A stretch of DNA of 43,448 nt from Chloroflexota bacterium. GTDB taxonomy: Bacteria; Chloroflexota; Anaerolineae; JAYEMR01. The stretch lies in contig JAYEMR010000108.1 of NCBI GenBank assembly GCA_034718215.1, positions 1 to 43,448 on the forward strand, given 5' to 3'. Below the pieces are notes generated by a model. That model did no database searches and had not been told where the DNA came from. It saw only the letters and a program-made list of their open reading frames with translations. Position numbers and translations under genes: made by a program. Shown one piece after another: positions 6,477 through 40,783 of the stretch (positions are counted from its first letter, which is position 1; each line of letters begins with the position of its first letter).

Positions 6477-7730
6477 CTAGACACTCGCCATCTCCTGCAG
6501 TTCATCCAGATTGGCCTTCACCTTAGCCACCGCCTCCACGAAGTCGTCCATCCCCTCGCGTGAGCCCAGGAGCACCCTCTGAGGGAAGCCCAGCCAGCGA
6601 CCGGCTGCGCTCTCGGCATTGGGGCAATGCACCTGGGTATAGTCCACCTGCTGAGAGCTTGGAAAGTGGAACCGAGCTTCGGTAAAAAGCGGATGCTGAT
6701 ACAGCAGTCGGCCGCTACTCGCCCCGCAGGGTATGCCCTCAGCGAAGAGGGCTCGGGCCACTAGCTTAGCTGGCAAATCATCAAAGGCTTCAGCATGATA
6801 GCGCAGACGAGGGTAAACATAGCTCTGGCGGGTGATTCGCTCATCCTCGAGAGGCCAGCTCAGCCCCCCGATCTCAGCCAATCCCTGTCCCAGCGCCTCC
6901 GCGTTGCTGTTTTTCCGCTCCAGGATCTCATCCAGCCGCTCCAGTTGCACCAGCAGCACCGCTGCCTGGAACTCACTCATGCGGAAGTCCCAGCCCTGCT
7001 CCACGAAGAGGCTCCCCCGCTCTCCCATGCCCCGACCGTCGTTGTGCAGGATGTAGCACCCTTCGTATGCCTCCCGGTCGTTTGTGACGGCCATGCCCCC
7101 CTCACCAGCAGTGATCTGCTTGTCCTGTTGGAAGCTGAAGGCGCTGAGATCGGAGAGGGCGGCTACCTTCGTGCCCCGCCACTCAGTGCCGTGGGCATGG
7201 CAGGCGTCGGCAACTACTTTGAGATCGTGCTTGGCGGCGATCTCCATGACGCAGTCCATGTCGGCGGGATAGCCTCCCAGATGCAGGGGCACGATGAGCT
7301 TGGTGCGGGAGGTGATGGCTGCCTCAATGGCCTCGGGGGCAAGGCACAGGGTCTCAGGGTCCACATCAGCGAAGATGGGCACTGCGCCCAGCTGCAGCAC
7401 GGCTGTGGCGGTGGCGATGAAGGTATTGGGAGGCATGATAGCCTCATCGCCCGGACCCAAGCCGGCGGCAGCGTAGGCGATCTGCAGTGCGTCGGTGCCG
7501 CTGCCTGTGGCCACGCCGAATTCGCAGTCGTGATAAGCGGCGAATCTCTCCTCCAGTTGATACACCTTGGAGAGCGACATGTCGCCTCGGAAGATGTAAG
7601 GTGCGCTGGTCCAGCGTCGGCTATCCAGCACCTCCTTGAGAGCGGCCAGTTCCCGTTCGTCATAGATAGGCCGCTCTGGGAAGGGCTTTGTGCGCACTGG
7701 TGTTCCTCCTGTGATGGCCAATTTGCCCAT
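6477..7730 (-). CDS. DegT/DnrJ/EryC1/StrS-family PLP-dependent sugar aminotransferase
   Basis: 417 aa. N-terminus MGKLAITGGTPVRTKPFPERP, conserved lysine region FSFQQDKQITAGEGGMAVTND, and an AAGGGGGA RBS upstream. Confidence 0.85.
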   Translation of the reverse strand: MGKLAITGGTPVRTKPFPERPIYDERELAALKEVLDSRRWTSAPYIFRGDMSLSKVYQLEERFAAYHDCEFGVATGSGTDALQIAYAAAGLGPGDEAIMPPNTFIATATAVLQLGAVPIFADVDPETLCLAPEAIEAAITSRTKLIVPLHLGGYPADMDCVMEIAAKHDLKVVADACHAHGTEWRGTKVAALSDLSAFSFQQDKQITAGEGGMAVTNDREAYEGCYILHNDGRGMGERGSLFVEQGWDFRMSEFQAAVLLVQLERLDEILERKNSNAEALGQGLAEIGGLSWPLEDERITRQSYVYPRLRYHAEAFDDLPAKLVARALFAEGIPCGASSGRLLYQHPLFTEARFHFPSSQQVDYTQVHCPNAESAAGRWLGFPQRVLLGSREGMDDFVEAVAKVKANLDELQEMASV

Positions 7731-7882: not shown

Positions 7883-8248
7883 ATGTACCCTAAAAGCGAA
7901 ATTCTATTCCCCCGTCGTTGCCTGCCCAGCCTTAAGGAGACGCGCAGTTTAAGATGGCAGAAGTTAATCAGACGGGTCTCTGAGCTGCCTGAGGATCATG
8001 TGGACAGCCTGGCTCTGTCATTGCTGATGATTCGATTATGCAAATGCCTGAGGTGCAATCTGGGGAGCTATAAAGCTTCGCTGGGCTGTTGTGCCTGCGG
8101 CCAGCGTGCGCTCTCACGCTTCAAAGGCTCCGATGCCGAGCTTTTGCACCGCTTCGAGGAGGCCAGGGAGGAGGTGATTGCCTATCTCGAAAGCCAGGGT
8201 ATTGAGCCCATAACTTCTACCTCGACGACCAGTCCAGGCAAATCCTGA
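7883..8248 (+). CDS. hypothetical Cys-rich protein (CxCxxC...CCxC)
   Basis: 121-aa ORF ending 8 nt before mutM, so co-transcription is plausible. It has no clear RBS and no family I recognise. The Cys cluster is CKCLRCNLGSYKASLGCCACG. Confidence 0.35.
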   Translation: MYPKSEILFPRRCLPSLKETRSLRWQKLIRRVSELPEDHVDSLALSLLMIRLCKCLRCNLGSYKASLGCCACGQRALSRFKGSDAELLHRFEEAREEVIAYLESQGIEPITSTSTTSPGKS

Positions 8249-9763: not shown

Positions 9764-11030
9764 TGTGTTCCGGTAACGCTAAAACTCCTCACTCTTGTGA
9801 AAGCCAAAATTCCCCATTAAAATAGGTCCCAGATGTCCATCTCCATCTCACGAAAGGGGGATCTGGGATCATGAAGATTCAAAACCTGTGGGATGTCCCC
9901 ATCGTCCGTCATCGCTTCCAAGTGGCCCTCCATGCGTTGATCCACGACAACAAATCCGCCACGGCCCGGAAGTTTAACCACGCCCGTAAGACCGTTCGAA
10001 GGTATATCGAGCGGTTCGAGGAGTATAAAAGGAGTGGTGACCTTAGCACCTTCTTAAATAAGCCCCGAGGGGACAATCATCGTACCCCTCGATGGATCGA
10101 GGACTGGGTAGTGGAGTGTTACCTGGAGGAGGACACCGAGCGAACTTGCCCCAACATCGCTCGAGAGTTGGGGAGAGTGCACGAGATTCCACTCACTCGC
10201 CAAACCATTCGCAATATTCTGATCCGTCGAGGAGTGTGGGAACCCACCCGAGAGCAGACTCCCATCATCCGCTTCGAAAAGGACAAACCTAATGCTCTCT
10301 GGCAGGTTGACCTGATTGAGCAAGCGAAGACTGATATAGGCAGGGTCTACGGCTTGGTAGTAGTGGATGACCACTCTCGCTATCTCATCACCCTGCACTT
10401 CCTGTTCACCAAAGAGGCGGAGGGGGTTCTCCATGCCCTTTATCTTGCCTTTTGCCGGTATGGCCTACCTACTAAGATTCTGTGCGACAAAGGAAGTCAG
10501 TTCTACTCCACCTTCCAGGGCAGCCTGAGTCGCTTTCAGAAAGTCATGGACCGATTAGGGGTCGAGGTGGAATTCACCAGTCGTCCCCAGACCAAGGGGA
10601 AGGTGGAGAAGTTGATCCAATTTATTGAGCGTGATTTCTTGGCCGTGTACCGCCATCGGGTGAGCCATCTCCAGCAGCTCAACGAGCACGCGGAGGGGTG
10701 GCGCCAAGGGTACAACAGGCGACCTCATGAAGGCATCCACACCTATCCCCAGCAGCGATACCAACCTTCCTCTTGCAAGGTGGGAAAGGACGCTTTGTGG
10801 GAGGCCTTTGCTCAAGAAGAGCGAAGCGAGATAGCACCATCCGATGGTGGGGTGGCAAATACTCGGTGCCCAGCGATTACATTGGTTCTCATGTCTGGGT
10901 TCAGACCTTTGGTGGGCAGATGAAGATCCGAGCTGGGGTTCGCAACAAGGTCATCGCCACCCACTCTATCCCTCCCTAGTGGGAAAGTTTAGCTTTTACA
11001 TACCTGGGCAGATTTAGCTTTTACGGAACA
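9764..11030 (+). mobile_element. insertion sequence with a single DDE (rve) transposase, imperfect terminal inverted repeats and subterminal repeats
   Basis: Left end TGTGTTCCGGTAACGCTAAAAC. Right end, reverse complement, TGTTCCGTAAAAGCTAAATC. Both ends are flanked by GGCC (9760-9763 and 11031-11034). TTTAGCTTTTAC occurs twice at the right end (10988-10999, 11013-11024), with related copies at the left end. The element looks lower in GC than its surroundings. Confidence 0.7.
9871..10979 (+). pseudogene. DDE transposase (HTH + rve integrase core), frameshifted near 10790-10815
   Basis: HTH (ARKFNHARKTVRRYIERFEE). DDE core WQVDL...VVVDDHSRY...LCDKGSQFYS...KGKVEKLIQFIERDF...YNRRPHEGI. The C-terminal beta-barrel-like segment RRAKRDSTIRWWGGKYSVPSDYIGSHVWVQTFGGQMKI is in another frame (track ORF 10773..10979). 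Confidence 0.75.
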
Positions 11031-34614: not shown

Positions 34615-34640
34615 TGCCCGCACCTGATCGGGCACAGGTG
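34615..34640 (-). repeat. 26-nt interleaved-palindrome element, copy 1
   Basis: Plus strand TGCCCGCACCTGATCGGGCACAGGTG. It lies in the spacer between the GH-like gene and larA. Confidence 0.85.
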
Positions 34641-36135: not shown

Positions 36136-36161
36136 CACCTGTACCCGATCAGGTGCGGGCA
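36136..36161 (+). repeat. 26-nt interleaved-palindrome element, copy 2
   Basis: CACCTGTACCCGATCAGGTGCGGGCA, in the leader of the 543-aa ORF. Confidence 0.85.
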
Positions 36162-36195
36162 GGCACGGGTGCCGACAGGCAGTAAAGGAGAAGAG

Positions 36196-37827
36196 ATGAT
36201 TAAGCGCCAGACTCAGCAGTTTGATTATTGGAAGGAGTTTTCGGTCACAGAAGGTAGCCTGGAGCATCTATATGAGTTGTTCCTCGAGGGGGAGGAGCCA
36301 CACACCAGCGAGGAGCTAGCTCTGGCCCTCATCCGGAGCCGTTACCGCGAGGAGGAGGATCGCCTGCGCCAGAAATTGTCGAGCGGCGAGATCTTTCAGC
36401 CACGGAACTCATACCCTGAGGGTACGCAGCTTATTTTCCCAGCCCTAGGCTATGAGCTGGCCACCGTCGTCGGCAAGCGACCGGGCCACAGCGTGCGGTA
36501 CGGTGATTTCACAGTTATTCAGGCCCAGTTCGCTGAGGGAGGGCCGACGCGCGAGTTCGCCTCGGAGCTTGAAGCCTCCCATCCCCTCAACCTTGAGAAG
36601 GAGGGGGATATCCTGGCCAGCGGTGATCTGCTTTCACCCAAGGAGCTGTACTCCGCTCGAGGGGACGCAGTGGCCTCAACCCTGGAGGAGACGCTGGCTG
36701 AGAGCGAGGATTTCGTCCACTGGAATGATGAGTGGTACCTCCGGGAGCTCATGCCCGATCTAAATGAGGGACATCGAAACATCGTGGAGGCGGTTATTGA
36801 GGTGGAGGGCGAGCCCATGGAGGCGGAGGGGCTCCTGCCCAAGTTGGATCTCTCGGATGAGTTCAAGCCTAGGGCCCAGGTCTTTGCCCTCAATTATTCC
36901 CTGGCCCACGATGAACGCTTCGAGGATGTGGGGCCAGCGGGCCAGGTCCGCTGGTTCCTGAGGCGCATGGAGCCGGAGGAGGTCCATGAGAAACCTCCCC
37001 GCCTTCGCTGCCAGAGGGAGTCCTACGATCCTACTGTGATCCGGCCGGATATGCTGGATTGGGTGCAAGAGTTCGCTGATGAGTTGATTGAGCCAGAGCT
37101 GCAGCCGACTTGGGAACCGGAGCAGGAGGAGACGACGCTGGTGCTCACCTACCCCCACCGCAGAGCGGGCACCCTTCCCCTGACGCCTCAGACCACCCCC
37201 TTCTTCCCTCAGAAGGAGGATGGCCCAGTGCATATCTATTTCCGCCATCCGCAGAGCAAAACGCGCTGGCCGGGCTGGGTCGTGGCTCAGGAGGGCTACG
37301 TGTATGGCCTGAGGCAATGGTACGATGAGGCCTCCATCCCCGCTGGGACTTATATCACACTGAGGCGCGGGGCTGACCCTTTGGAAGTGCTGATCGAGTG
37401 TCAACAGCGGCGCCTGAGGGAGTGGGTACGGGTAGCCCAAGTTCGGGATGGGAAGCTGACCTTCGAAATGCAGTCCCGCTCCGTTTCCTGGGAATATGAT
37501 GACTTGATGCTCATATCCGAGGCCCATCCTTCACCTGTGCCTGATCAGGTGCAGGCAAAGATAGATCGTGTGTGGCAGCGGGCGGAGGAGGAGCGCAGGT
37601 CCATTTTCACCATCCTCTGCGAGATATTCCCTGAGCTGTCCAAACTCAATCCGCAGGGTACGGTACACGTCAAAACGCTCTACGCGGCGGTGAATGTGAT
37701 ACGCCGCTTCTCGCCAGGCCCCATCTTGGCCGAGCTGTCCACACGGGCATGTTTCCTTCCCGTGGGCGACGGTTATTGGAGCTACCATGAAGAACACCTG
37801 TGCCTGATCAGGTGCAGGCAAAGGTAG
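36196..37827 (+). CDS. hypothetical acidic protein, 543 aa, no family recognised
   Basis: ATG at 36196 with GGAG 5 nt upstream; the track ORF starts at a GTG at 36169. It is a long uninterrupted ORF. The N-terminal segment (SLEHLYELFLEGEEPHTSEELALALIRS) looks winged-helix-like. It carries element copies 3 and 4 in frame. Confidence 0.7.
   Translation: MIKRQTQQFDYWKEFSVTEGSLEHLYELFLEGEEPHTSEELALALIRSRYREEEDRLRQKLSSGEIFQPRNSYPEGTQLIFPALGYELATVVGKRPGHSVRYGDFTVIQAQFAEGGPTREFASELEASHPLNLEKEGDILASGDLLSPKELYSARGDAVASTLEETLAESEDFVHWNDEWYLRELMPDLNEGHRNIVEAVIEVEGEPMEAEGLLPKLDLSDEFKPRAQVFALNYSLAHDERFEDVGPAGQVRWFLRRMEPEEVHEKPPRLRCQRESYDPTVIRPDMLDWVQEFADELIEPELQPTWEPEQEETTLVLTYPHRRAGTLPLTPQTTPFFPQKEDGPVHIYFRHPQSKTRWPGWVVAQEGYVYGLRQWYDEASIPAGTYITLRRGADPLEVLIECQQRRLREWVRVAQVRDGKLTFEMQSRSVSWEYDDLMLISEAHPSPVPDQVQAKIDRVWQRAEEERRSIFTILCEIFPELSKLNPQGTVHVKTLYAAVNVIRRFSPGPILAELSTRACFLPVGDGYWSYHEEHLCLIRCRQR
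37532..37557 (+). repeat. 26-nt interleaved-palindrome element, copy 3 (intragenic)
   Basis: CACCTGTGCCTGATCAGGTGCAGGCA, translated as SPVPDQVQA within the 543-aa ORF. Confidence 0.9.
37795..37820 (+). repeat. 26-nt interleaved-palindrome element, copy 4 (supplies the ORF C-terminus)
   Basis: Identical to copy 3 but read in a different frame (HLCLIRCRQR-stop). The TAG at 37825-37827 lies just beyond it. Confidence 0.9.
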
Positions 37828-38299: not shown

Positions 38300-38341
38300 C
38301 CTTGAGCCTGACGCTACAGCTAGCGGCTGCGGAAGGCCGTG

Positions 38342-38367
38342 CACCCGTGCCTGATCGGGTACAGGCA
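38342..38367 (+). repeat. 26-nt interleaved-palindrome element, copy 5
   Basis: CACCCGTGCCTGATCGGGTACAGGCA, 7 nt upstream of tRNA-Arg. Confidence 0.85.
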
Positions 38368-38374
38368 AACACCT

Positions 38375-38447
38375 GCCCCTGTAGCTCAGCGGACAGAGCA
38401 CCTGCCTTCTAAGCAGGGTGCCGGGGGTTCGAATCCCTCCAGGGGCA
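38375..38447 (+). tRNA. tRNA-Arg (anticodon UCU), 73 nt, CCA not encoded
   Basis: Hand-folded cloverleaf. Acceptor GCCCCTG/CAGGGGC, D stem GCTC/GAGC, anticodon stem CCTGC/GCAGG with loop CT-TCT-AA. Variable loop GTGCC, T arm GGGGG-TTCGAAT-CCCTC, discriminator A. Confidence 0.9.
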
Positions 38448-38495
38448 CTGGACTAGGAGGTCGATGCAAGTGGGATGGGCCTGAATTACCGGTGA

Positions 38496-38514
38496 CCTGT
38501 CTGCCACAGGCAGG
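38496..38514 (+). repeat. 19-nt hairpin element, left copy of a perfect inverted pair
   Basis: CCTGTCTGCCACAGGCAGG. It folds as an 8-bp stem (one G-U pair) with loop CCA. Its exact reverse complement is at 38715-38733. Confidence 0.85.
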
Positions 38515-38518
38515 AAAG

Positions 38519-38695
38519 TTATGCGGGACTGCCTATAACACTGAGCATCTCCTCAGGATTGCCCGCCATTTCTTCCATCGCCTCCTGCCTGCACCTGATC
38601 AGGCACAGGTGGTCGCTCCAGGGAATCTCCGCTGTGCCAAAACACATCGAGCGCTCGTGGCCCTTGCCGGTGACCAGCACCAGATCGCCACCTGA
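38519..38695 (-). pseudogene. diverged duplicate of the murE 3' end (last ~57 codons), carrying a 24-nt element insertion
   Basis: Reads GDLVLVTGKGHERSMCFGTAEIPWSD-HLCLIRCR-QEAMEEMAGNPEEML...stop. Authentic MurE reads GDLVLVTGKGHERSMCFGTTEYPWSD-QEAVREALREVLCR. 38612-38689 aligns to 39206-39283 with 10 differences in 78 nt by my count. Confidence 0.8.
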
Positions 38696-39095
38696 TGCGG
38701 CTTATCGGTTCATCCCTGCCTGTGGCAGACAGGAGAGTGGCGAGGAGCATCGGCAGTGGCTTCAGCTCCCGCTTCAATGGGTCGAGGACCAGTCCAAGTG
38801 CCTCCAGGGTGAACGCCCCCAGGAGTGTGTGGTCGCCCTTTTCACCAAAGATGACATCAGCCCCGCCTACCCTTTCACCATACCGGAAGAAAGCAAAGCC
38901 CTTCTTGCGGACGACCTTAGTGCCATTGGCCAGTCGGAATTCCTCTTCCGCTATTGGTTTAATACCGAGCTTCTGCAAAATAGGGATGGGGACCACCGAA
39001 TAGACGGCCCCAGAATCAATCAGAAAATCCACCTTCTCCGTCACCTCAGGATTAGCCGGGTTTCCAACTTCAATTTCCAACACCGTCAGTCCCAT
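38553..39095 (-). CDS. retropepsin-like (clan AA) aspartic protease with an anomalous C-terminal extension of about 60 aa
   Basis: ATG at 39095 with AGGAGG 5 nt upstream. MGLTVLEIEVGNP...VDFLIDSGAVYSVVP (DSGA active site)...LLGAFTLEALGLVLDPLKRELKPLPMLLA is a complete domain of about 119 aa. The ORF then reads on through the 19-nt hairpin, the murE fragment (out of frame) and element copy 6. Confidence 0.7.
   Translation of the reverse strand: MGLTVLEIEVGNPANPEVTEKVDFLIDSGAVYSVVPIPILQKLGIKPIAEEEFRLANGTKVVRKKGFAFFRYGERVGGADVIFGEKGDHTLLGAFTLEALGLVLDPLKRELKPLPMLLATLLSATGRDEPISRIRWRSGAGHRQGPRALDVFWHSGDSLERPPVPDQVQAGGDGRNGGQS
38586..38611 (-). repeat. 26-nt interleaved-palindrome element, copy 6 (inside the murE fragment)
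   Basis: Plus strand TGCCTGCACCTGATCAGGCACAGGTG. Comparison with murE shows that 38588-38611 (24 nt) is the inserted block. Confidence 0.9.
38715..38733 (-). repeat. 19-nt hairpin element, right copy of the inverted pair
   Basis: Plus strand CCTGCCTGTGGCAGACAGG, the exact reverse complement of 38496-38514. It sits directly after the conserved end of the retropepsin-like domain. Confidence 0.85.
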
Positions 39096-39160
39096 CGCTT
39101 CCTCCTTCTCTGAAAGCAACCAGGTATCTGACCCAATCATACTACATTGAGGCCACTTTG

Positions 39161-40783
39161 TCAACGGCACAGCACCTCTCTCAGCGCTTCCCTCACCGCC
39201 TCCTGGTCGCTCCAGGGATACTCCGTCGTGCCAAAACACATGGAGCGCTCGTGACCCTTGCCAGTCACCAGTACCAGGTCGCCCGGGCGGGCGCGCTCGA
39301 TGGCGAAACGGATCGCCTCCCCTCGATCCTCGATCCGCCAGTAGCTCTCCCCCTCCACTGCCCCTTCACTCTCGCAGCCAGCAGCGATCTGCTCAATGAT
39401 CTCCTCCAGCGGCTCGGTGCGGGGGTCCTCGGCGGTGAGCACGGCGAAATCAGCCAGCCGGGCGGCGATCTCCCCCATCATGGGCCGCTTCCCCACGTCG
39501 CGCAGCCCCGCGCAGCCGAAGACTACCCACACCCGCCCCTCGGCCAGCCCGCGCACGGTCCTCAGCGCCTGCTCCAGCGCGGCCGGCGTGTGGGCGAAGT
39601 CCACGATCACGGTGAAGGGCTGCCCACCTGTGGCCGACAGGCTACAATCAATGCGCTCCATGCGGCCGGAAATGCCCCCCAGCGCCCTGATGCCAGCCTG
39701 CATGGCCTCCACGGGCGCCTCCAGGGCTATCCCCACCGCGATGGCCGCCAGGCAGTTGTACACGTTGTAGCGCCCGATGAGAGGGATATGGACCGGGAAG
39801 TCTCCCACCGGGGTGTGTGCGGTGAAGGCGAGCGCCTGGGGCGAGGGGCGGATATCCGAGGCGGTGATGTCAGCGGGATGAGCCAGAGCGCCTGTACCCT
39901 TCAGGGTGCCTGTACCCTTTAGGGTATAAGAGAGGTGGCGGTTAGCGGGGATGGCGCGCAGATAATCGTAGGAGGGATCGTCGGCGTTGAGCACGGCGGT
40001 CTTGGGCAGGCCCGGCTTTTGGCGGGCGGAGGCCAGCCCTCGGAAGAGCATGGCCTTCGCCTCCCTGTATTTCTCGAATGTCCCGTGGGCATAGAGATGC
40101 TCGTGGGTGATGTTGGTCACGACCGCTATATCGAAATCGCAGGCCGTGACCCGATGCTGGGCCAGCCCCTCGGAGGTGGCCTCCAGCACGGCGTGGGTTG
40201 TGCCCGCGGCCACCATCTCCACCAGGTAGCGCTGCACGTCGGGGGCATCGGGCGTGGTGGTGTGCAGCCCGGTATCGTGAACTGTGTCACCGAGGACCGC
40301 GTTCACGGTGGAGATCATCCCCGTCCTGTAGCCTGCGGCGCGGAGGATGTGGTAGATCAGGTTGACGGTGGTGGTCTTGCCATCTGTTCCGGTCACGCCG
40401 ATCATGGCCATCTGACGGGCGGGGAAATTGTGCCAGGCGGCGCTCAGGTGAGCCAACGCCTCCCGGCCGGAGGGGACGACGATGAGGGGCACTTTTTGAT
40501 GCACTCGATGGCCCAGAGTTAAACTCTGGGCCATCGAGGCCATCGAGTGTTCCACCACGACTGCCGCCGCTCCCCGCTGGATCGCGTCGGGGATAAAATC
40601 GTGTCCATCCACCTGAACACCCTCGTAGGCCACGAATAGATTCCCCGCCCTCACCTCCCGCGAATCCTCGGTGATGCCGGTGATGAGCGCCCCCGGATCG
40701 CCGTGGAGCGTGGCCTGCGGAAGCGCGGGGAGCAGTTCTCTCAGCGGGCGACCTGTTGCCTCGTTCACTCGTCTCTCCGTCAA
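39161..40783 (-). CDS. murE: UDP-N-acetylmuramoyl-L-alanyl-D-glutamate--2,6-diaminopimelate ligase (MurE)
   Basis: 540 aa. P-loop GVTGTDGKTTT, Mur ligase middle and C-terminal domains, and an EDPR variant of the DNPR motif. The start overlaps the pcrA stop by 4 nt. Confidence 0.95.
   Translation of the reverse strand: MTERRVNEATGRPLRELLPALPQATLHGDPGALITGITEDSREVRAGNLFVAYEGVQVDGHDFIPDAIQRGAAAVVVEHSMASMAQSLTLGHRVHQKVPLIVVPSGREALAHLSAAWHNFPARQMAMIGVTGTDGKTTTVNLIYHILRAAGYRTGMISTVNAVLGDTVHDTGLHTTTPDAPDVQRYLVEMVAAGTTHAVLEATSEGLAQHRVTACDFDIAVVTNITHEHLYAHGTFEKYREAKAMLFRGLASARQKPGLPKTAVLNADDPSYDYLRAIPANRHLSYTLKGTGTLKGTGALAHPADITASDIRPSPQALAFTAHTPVGDFPVHIPLIGRYNVYNCLAAIAVGIALEAPVEAMQAGIRALGGISGRMERIDCSLSATGGQPFTVIVDFAHTPAALEQALRTVRGLAEGRVWVVFGCAGLRDVGKRPMMGEIAARLADFAVLTAEDPRTEPLEEIIEQIAAGCESEGAVEGESYWRIEDRGEAIRFAIERARPGDLVLVTGKGHERSMCFGTTEYPWSDQEAVREALREVLCR
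39890..39925 (-). repeat. 18-nt tandem duplication inside murE (LKGTGT / LKGTGA)
   Basis: Plus strand GCCTGTACCCTTCAGGGT (39890-39907) and GCCTGTACCCTTTAGGGT (39908-39925), with one mismatch. Each unit contains ACCCTTYAGGGT. Confidence 0.9.

Follow-up and report, generated by a model that had tools for sequence, protein, structure and literature searches.

Among the small repeats of bacterial genomes, miniature inverted-repeat transposable elements, or MITEs, measure 70-300 bp and carry terminal inverted repeats of 15-30 bp together with a target-site duplication of fixed length. Repetitive extragenic palindromes (REPs) and REPINs are mobilised by RAYT tyrosine transposases and their location is almost entirely extragenic. 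The small dispersed repeats (SDRs) are said to be 21-27 nt long with some hairpin-forming families, and they were reportedly shown to be insertions by comparing matching sequences. REPs have been described as imperfect palindromes of 20-40 nt, which are multi-copy, form hairpins and occur as several families per genome (PMC3733652, PMC3116915). They are occasionally found inside genes, including replication and repair genes, and are present in Chloroflexi (PMC3733652, PMC3116915). A conserved tetranucleotide at one end, GTAG or CGTC, serves as their tag (PMC3733652). Palindromic elements of Rickettsia, on the other hand, lie in-frame in unrelated genes which stay functional, and add a conserved peptide at tolerated positions (PMC10969869, PMC3733652). 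Two further papers cite the SDRs of Nostocaceae as short mobile elements, of which SDR5 inserts at a precise position within HIP1 (PMC5861425, PMC4390886). The present study deals with a 24-nt block in a partial second copy of the murE 3' end on contig JAYEMR010000108.1 of a Chloroflexota bacterium; the whole contig (43,448 nt) was analysed and is called the window. It is probable that this block arose by one insertion of a tiny non-autonomous palindromic repeat, which now sits in the relic of a closely related functional murE allele.

The sequences and coordinates given for both murE ends by the initial annotation were checked base for base and all of them were correct. On the plus strand the intact murE end (39194-39217) reads CACCGCCTCCTG followed directly by GTCGCTCCAGGG. 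The corresponding part of the fragment (38576-38623) reads CATCGCCTCCTG[CCTGCACCTGATCAGGCACAGGTG]GTCGCTCCAGGG, and the bracketed block occupies 38588-38611, which is exactly the 24 nt that had been claimed. The minus-strand open reading frame (ORF) 38519..38680 accordingly reads ...PWSD-HLCLIRCR-QEAMEEMAGNPEEML..., as against ...PWSDQEAVREALREVLCR and a stop codon in murE, the protein of which (minus strand, 39161..40783) ends in ...GKGHERSMCFGTTEYPWSDQEAVREALREVLCR. On the 3' side of the block the match to murE resumes with 11 of 12 bases (CAGGAGGCGATG vs CAGGAGGCGGTG), and the block therefore interrupts a continuous murE sequence. The empty site in the intact gene lies between GAC and CAGGAG, and the ambiguity as to a target duplication at this site is at most 2 nt (CA). 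The fragment segment 38610-38689 forms an 80-nt direct repeat with its counterpart in murE (39204-39283). The 10 differences reported over the 78 shared nt were found again, with 68 of 78 bases matching.

The block had been proposed to be an insertion and not ancestral sequence, and the homologues agree with this. Among the best 120 MurE homologues listed, none has the element-coded peptide, and the block is missing from every one of the 117 that show a PWSD-type motif (0/117). An ancestral block which was later deleted from the intact murE was rejected, as it is absent in 117/117 of these homologues. The same kind of gain was seen at two more places in the window. ORF 36169..37827 codes for a conserved Chloroflexota protein to which no function has been assigned, and compared with 19 homologues it has two extra stretches of 8 residues. 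These stretches, SPVPDQVQ and HLCLIRCR, coincide exactly with copies of the element at 37532 and 37795, and for the site at 37532 an exact 24-nt gap exists in three orthologous DNA loci (L026, L027 and L028). The comparisons thus show three independent events with a net gain of 24 nt, one in the murE fragment and two in ORF 36169..37827. The gain of HLCLIRCR without loss of frame, to which attention had been drawn earlier, is real, but no special meaning attaches to it: the net gain was 24 nt in all three empty-site comparisons, and with this element length the frame is kept automatically.

The block belongs to a repeat with a 26-nt consensus, CACCTGTGCCTGATCAGGTGCAGGCA, and a net gain of 24 nt per insertion. 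A scan of the window with the 26-nt pattern at up to 3 mismatches gave 3 matches, where 0.00 were expected, and looser matching gave 6 copies, every one of them between 34615 and 38611. In the other loci examined 24 further copies were found, making 30 with those of the window; five shuffles gave 0. The ends CACC...GGCA are present in 29 of the 29 fully contained copies (one more lies at a contig end), and the flanks are not conserved. The pattern occurs in 21 stretches from three metagenomes, and one of these three samples also contains L001, the locus with the closest murE relative of the window. The exact degenerate pattern had 0 matches in 185,579 species genomes, a set in which cyanobacteria should be represented, and 0 in the viral contigs scanned. 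All 6 copies and both copies of a 19-nt palindrome described below are packed into 4.1 kb of the 43-kb contig; in related loci there is usually one copy of the 26-nt element per about 10 kb.

The element is an imperfect palindrome with a predicted 9-bp hairpin as DNA and as RNA. Its architecture is hexA hexB AT rc(hexA) rc(hexB), that is, two interleaved 6-bp inverted repeats and no plain palindrome. About 92% of cells are paired under a simple hairpin and under the interleaved pairing model alike. At positions 5/16 and 11/22, which are 11 nt apart, variants switch T-to-C and A-to-G together, and two-sided pair changes appear only under the interleaved model, in a set of just 11 variants that is biased by the search pattern. 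This co-variation hints at interleaved pairing and fits a simple hairpin less well. In the T11C variant, the TGA stop in the third frame is removed.

Strong conservation of the 26 nt across copies could also be expected if the sequence were a functional motif under selection (a signal for protein binding, uptake or RNA stability, for instance) and not mobile DNA. The predicted RNA hairpin is asymmetric between strands (-13.4 kcal/mol against -9.4 for the opposite strand), several intergenic copies are placed immediately beyond the 3' ends of genes, and the co-variation at 5/16 and 11/22 hints at a constrained structure. However, point mutation does not give exact 24-nt gains in otherwise alignable genes, and the copies lie in unrelated genes and in both orientations. 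There is no U-tract for termination, and the window holds six copies within 4 kb and 0 in the remaining 39 kb. We regard a selected motif as very improbable.

The behaviour of the insertion inside genes deserves attention. Only 2 of the 6 frames of the element contain a stop, so that 4 of 6 are open; since an insertion adds exactly eight codons, a copy can be retained within a gene. Of 29 distinct sites, at least 12 are inside confirmed genes, essential ones included. In the metagenome loci, ten host ORFs were confirmed by Pfam: a polyketide synthase, a fused glycyl-tRNA synthetase (GlyRS), DnaA, a PMT_2 glycosyltransferase, an alcohol dehydrogenase, a lactate permease, SpoIID, an amidohydrolase, an amidase and a GXGXG protein. 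In several cases the copy sits between or ahead of recognised domains; in GlyRS, for example, it separates the alpha from the beta part, and in DnaA it follows DnaA_N and precedes the ATPase domain. All 11 copies deep inside genes are read in the PxPDQxQ frame (11/11), whichever their orientation. The HLCLIRCR frame was found only within a few codons of protein ends and, in addition, in the murE relic. As this frame is otherwise confined to the neighbourhood of protein ends, the insertion in the murE fragment may post-date its loss of function. The uniform PxPDQxQ frame of the deep copies points to translation and purifying selection. Judged from these alignments, the element is multi-copy and is tolerated in coding sequence with a bias of frame.

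Compared with the described repeats, the element resembles REPs in its size and stem-loop shape (26-nt consensus, predicted 9-bp hairpin). It differs from them in that at least 12 of 29 distinct sites are inside ORFs and in that copies are single units and not doublets. No RAYT gene was found among the genes of the window, and a rough probe of low power gave no IS200-like match in about 1 Mb of loci. Like the palindromic elements of Rickettsia it lies in-frame in ORFs and adds a conserved peptide, but those are about 100-150 bp long and restricted to Rickettsia, whereas this element has 24-26 nt (about six times smaller), adds 8 residues and is from Chloroflexota. A MITE is excluded by a total length of only 24-26 nt. 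With SDRs the element shares the type of demonstration, since the net gain of 24 nt at three sites was obtained by comparing otherwise matching sequences, as was reportedly done for SDRs. To our knowledge no mobilising mechanism has been established for SDRs, and the same holds for the present element. SDRs have been reported only from Nostocaceae, whereas this element is from Chloroflexota; no HIP1-type target was seen for it, and it is heavily represented in coding sequence with a frame bias. SDRs would thus be the closest known kind, likened by description and not by sequence. The 24-nt element appears to be an undescribed variant that resembles the known small bacterial repeats.

The fragment that carries the block is equally informative. 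It had been ascribed to a different or older allele and not to a recent duplication, and a different allele is what the comparison supports: 7 of the 10 differences over 78 nt fall in synonymous codons, 6 of 13 four-fold sites differ, and 2 of 26 residues differ between fragment and resident copy. Judged from this alignment, the divergence of the fragment is biased to synonymous changes. The fragment is 90.8% identical to L001, 89.7% to the related locus L031 and 87.2% to the resident murE. Because the differences are mostly synonymous, the fragment would have diverged within a working murE of another member of the same narrow clade, and would be a recent relic in its present place. A protein search with the fragment peptide including the insertion gave one unrelated short MurE piece and no allele with the MEEMAGNPEEML tail, and the tail of the fragment had no counterpart in anything searched; the DNA stretch specific to the fragment is GGAGGCGATGGAAGAAATGGCGGGCAATCCTGAGGAG. 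An origin of the tail from the protease N-terminus (a deleted tandem unit) was not adopted, as the similarity was marginal and 11-14 of 500 shuffles scored as high.

A fragment from a different allele on a contig that is entirely metagenomic might also be produced if the assembly had joined contigs from two co-occurring related populations, and close relatives do co-occur in related samples. A k-mer misjoin would, however, yield a colinear hybrid gene and not a duplication with a protease gene in between. The junction at 38690-38697 has only 7-8 unassigned bases shared with anything else, and an analogous duplication is present in L001, an independent assembly from another sample. A chimera is accordingly quite improbable in our estimate. 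In L001, that locus's own murE 3' end and promoter are duplicated (7558-7685 and 7974-8094, 82% identical) around an unrelated 83-aa ORF without Pfam match, and the repeat begins 34 nt further into murE than the window fragment. None of 80 more distant genomes has a murE-end duplication. The duplication thus appears, from these comparisons, to be specific to the lineage, recurrent within it and independent in L001. It was also observed that the murE of L001 (6001-7641) has a 78-nt tandem duplication in a conserved part (ELAEGRVWVVFGCAGLRDVGKRPMMG twice), which is either real or an assembly artefact.

The question which allele is native, raised earlier as a check by comparison with relatives, could be answered in favour of the intact end. 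The window is colinear with L031 through uvrD, murE, the promoter-like site and a retropepsin-like gene, down to 38734. The protease gene and the gene after murE in L031 are 92% identical in DNA and 94% in protein. At four-fold sites, uvrD has diverged from L031 by 32%, murE by 28% (its last 45 codons by 24%) and the protease gene by 24%. Synonymous divergence is thus uniform across uvrD, murE and protease, from which it follows that the intact end and the protease gene were passed down along with the rest. By this comparison it is the intact murE end that is native. Recent import of that end together with the protease from an L031-like donor was rejected, identity and four-fold-site divergence being uniform. 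The promoter-like site at the murE stop codon is conserved in L031 (6539-6570) and in both murE-end copies of L001 (7637-7668 and 8047-8078), and it probably drives the variable downstream gene.

It should be noted here that islands which integrate into the 3' ends of genes leave a direct repeat of the gene end, and the gene stays intact. The present locus has such a likeness, as a direct repeat of the murE 3' end (80 nt, 88%) brackets DNA and murE is intact. The fragment could then be the original murE 3' end, displaced when a cassette (murE-like 3' end, promoter and protease) entered by site-specific or Campbell-type recombination. The direct repeats flank a single small gene, L001 has the same layout around its different 83-aa gene with the promoter in both repeats, and the fragment adjoins the tRNA-Arg block, whose native status follows from synteny. 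What lies downstream of murE also differs from one relative to another and is rich in toxin-antitoxin-like genes. Nevertheless, the murE end and the protease have diverged from L031 synonymously to the same extent as uvrD and the remaining murE, and any displacing integration would for this reason predate the split of the window and L031. A fragment so old should show neutral decay, and its differences are mostly synonymous instead. In L031 the protease gene is present and there is no second copy of murE. Between the repeats lies a single retropepsin-like gene of 133 aa, of the same age as the genes on either side; no integrase occurs in this DNA or beside it, and the boundaries of the repeat are not the same in the window and in L001. 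Displacement of the original end is for these reasons considered unlikely.

With insertion into a relic of a related allele as the preferred reading, the following course of events can be proposed. The repeat would have spread through the genome of an uncultured Anaerolineae-like lineage, and the copies inside genes survive for the most part as a PxPDQxQ stretch, located in linkers and at protein ends. It could be moved in trans as a single-stranded hairpin by an enzyme that is not encoded nearby, most plausibly a HUH/IS200-RAYT-like transposase; this is suggested because the insertions leave no target duplication, or one of at most 2 nt. The relic itself may have arrived by homology-guided, one-ended recombination with the DNA of a relative. 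The fragment comes just after the promoter and the retropepsin-like gene, both vertically inherited, and is spaced 594 nt from its counterpart in the resident murE upstream; this distance from its homologue argues for a homology-guided event. At the breakpoint, what had been described as a half-element, CACCTGAT at 38689-38696, is indeed present, but it is an internal octamer of the consensus and not a terminal half. The window has 34 consensus octamers elsewhere, so that one is expected by chance within 10 nt of a given point in about 1.6% of cases (p about 0.016), and an involvement of the octamer in the junction is suggestive at most.

Several observations speak against this account. Only 26 codons of the fragment can be compared, which leaves few sites behind the synonymous bias. 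Among the sequences searched there was no intact murE with the tail of the fragment. No transposase able to move the element was found among the window genes, and approximate probes of low power gave no match to an IS200/IS605/IS608-type transposase in about 1 Mb of loci. No presence/absence polymorphism was seen: of the metagenome loci only L006 and L022 overlap, and the element is present in each. The arrangement is that of an assembly, the window being a whole metagenomic contig. Finally, unlike REPs the element has no GTAG or CGTC tag, since it starts with CACC and ends with GGCA.

A wider proposal, which we put forward only tentatively and consider doubtful, is that the 18-26-nt CCTG...CAGG palindromes form an undescribed minimal class of mobile elements. 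Such a class would have interleaved A B AT A' B' repeats with co-variation at 5/16 and 11/22, would not be moved via RAYT/GTAG recognition, and would survive mainly in coding sequence (that of essential genes included), where it forms a PxPDQxQ linker of 8 residues. It might also seed local rearrangements, with the missing thiF, the murE-relic junction and the frame-shifted protease gene as examples.

The locus offers a clean, internally controlled case of mobile DNA of about 24 nt which enters bacterial genes without destroying them, and near parallels are limited to REPs, Rickettsia palindromic elements and cyanobacterial small dispersed repeats. Short peptides added to proteins such as DnaA, GlyRS and MurE are a source of variation in protein length. 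Small elements of this kind can mislead gene callers as well as alignment-based phylogenies in metagenome-assembled genomes. The lineage has no close genome representative (MurE identity of at most 64%), and its mobilising enzyme is a testable question. The murE end has been duplicated recurrently, in two relatives, and this marks the stretch downstream of murE as a recombination hotspot, where small toxin-antitoxin-like genes are shuffled. The coordinates of the features are collected in Table 1.

Table 1. Features of the murE region and of the element copies in the window.
Feature	Position	Strand	Evidence or remark
Variant element copy, intergenic, downstream of LarA-like gene	34615..34640	-	pattern match
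Variant element copy, intergenic, 8 nt before start of ORF 36169	36136..36161	+	pattern match
Element copy inside conserved gene 36169..37827, adds SPVPDQVQ	37532..37557	+	8-residue gap in 19 homologues; 24-nt gap in L026, L027, L028
Element copy two codons before stop of 36169..37827, adds HLCLIRCR	37795..37820	+	8-residue gap in 19 homologues
Variant element copy (CACCCGTGCCTGATCGGGTACAGGCA), 8 nt upstream of tRNA-Arg, at thiF position of relatives	38342..38367	+	pattern match
tRNA-Arg(TCT), convergent with fragment, end of syntenic ORF552 block	38375..38448	+	tRNA match, synteny
Identical copy of 19-nt palindrome, opposite orientation, 4 nt past fragment stop codon	38496..38514	+	perfect 19-nt inverted repeat
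Probable relic 3' fragment of diverged murE allele, GDLVLVTGKGHERSMCFGTAEIPWSD[HLCLIRCR]QEAMEEMAGNPEEMLSVIGSPA and stop	38519..38690	-	sequence comparison
Element copy in murE fragment	38586..38611 (net block 38588-38611, 24 nt)	-	0 mismatches to consensus
CACCTGAT octamer at upstream breakpoint of fragment	38689..38696	+	internal consensus octamer
Retropepsin-like aspartyl protease gene, inferred native stop 38702-38704	38697..39095	-	Pfam PF13650; 133 aa
19-nt palindrome (CCTGTCTGCCACAGGCAGG) near protease gene end, shifts frame past native stop	38715..38733	-	exact 19-nt gap in L031, homology on both sides
Promoter-like site TTGACA-17-TATGAT overlapping murE stop codon	39136..39164	-	11/12 consensus matches
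Intact native murE (UDP-MurNAc-tripeptide ligase, 540 aa)	39161..40783	-	ORF; best homologues Mur ligases, 74-79% identity
Segment of intact murE repeated in fragment	39204..39283	-	alignment; direct repeat, 88%, spacing 594 nt
In-frame 18-nt palindromic insertion in intact murE (SLSATG)	39628..39645	-	window-specific; 16/19 match to 19-nt family
In-frame 36-nt insertion in intact murE (two tandem 18-nt units, TLKGTG twice)	39882..39917	-	window-specific

A second palindrome, of 19 nt, has its only exact copies in the window at 38496-38514 and 38715-38733, around the fragment. Compared with L031, the insertion in the protease gene is clean and a target duplication is absent. Because this insertion shifts the frame, the protease ORF runs on to 38553, past its native end ...LLATLMNR. 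In the extended ORF (38553-39095) the murE relic contributes about 60 residues, among them PPVPDQVQA as the reading of the 24-nt element. In viral contigs the 19-mer had one match, which is about chance level by our own estimate of the expectation. The two insertions in the intact murE (18 nt and 36 nt) are absent in six close relatives, and it was observed that their CCTG/CAGG palindromic cores are related to the small element families.

Apart from this, the window is ordinary chromosome with genes for ATP synthase, SecDF, Rho, FtsK and RecJ, and an Rfam scan of it matched only tRNA. The only recognisable mobile-element gene on the contig codes for a DDE (rve) transposase (9871-10923); about 24 kb separate it from the 26-nt element copy closest to it, and about 28 kb from the murE fragment. 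In relatives, the order ORF552 - small ORF - thiF - tRNA-Arg is conserved. The thiF gene lies between the small ORF and tRNA-Arg in L026 and L028 and is missing from 38300-38374 of the window; no ThiF homologue was found in the window, and the variant element copy occupies the place of thiF. A possible 18-nt relic of the middle of thiF at 38319-38336 is weak, as 8 of 300 shuffles scored as high against L028 and 85 of 300 against L026. The region downstream of murE in the relatives has traces of other small genes. At 6985-7095 of L031 a C-terminal remnant of a GNAT acetyltransferase, recognised by eye (...RLYESAGFHPFSRTI and stop), lies downstream of the protease gene. In L032 an intact acetyltransferase directly follows murE, and the downstream region therefore turns over small genes.

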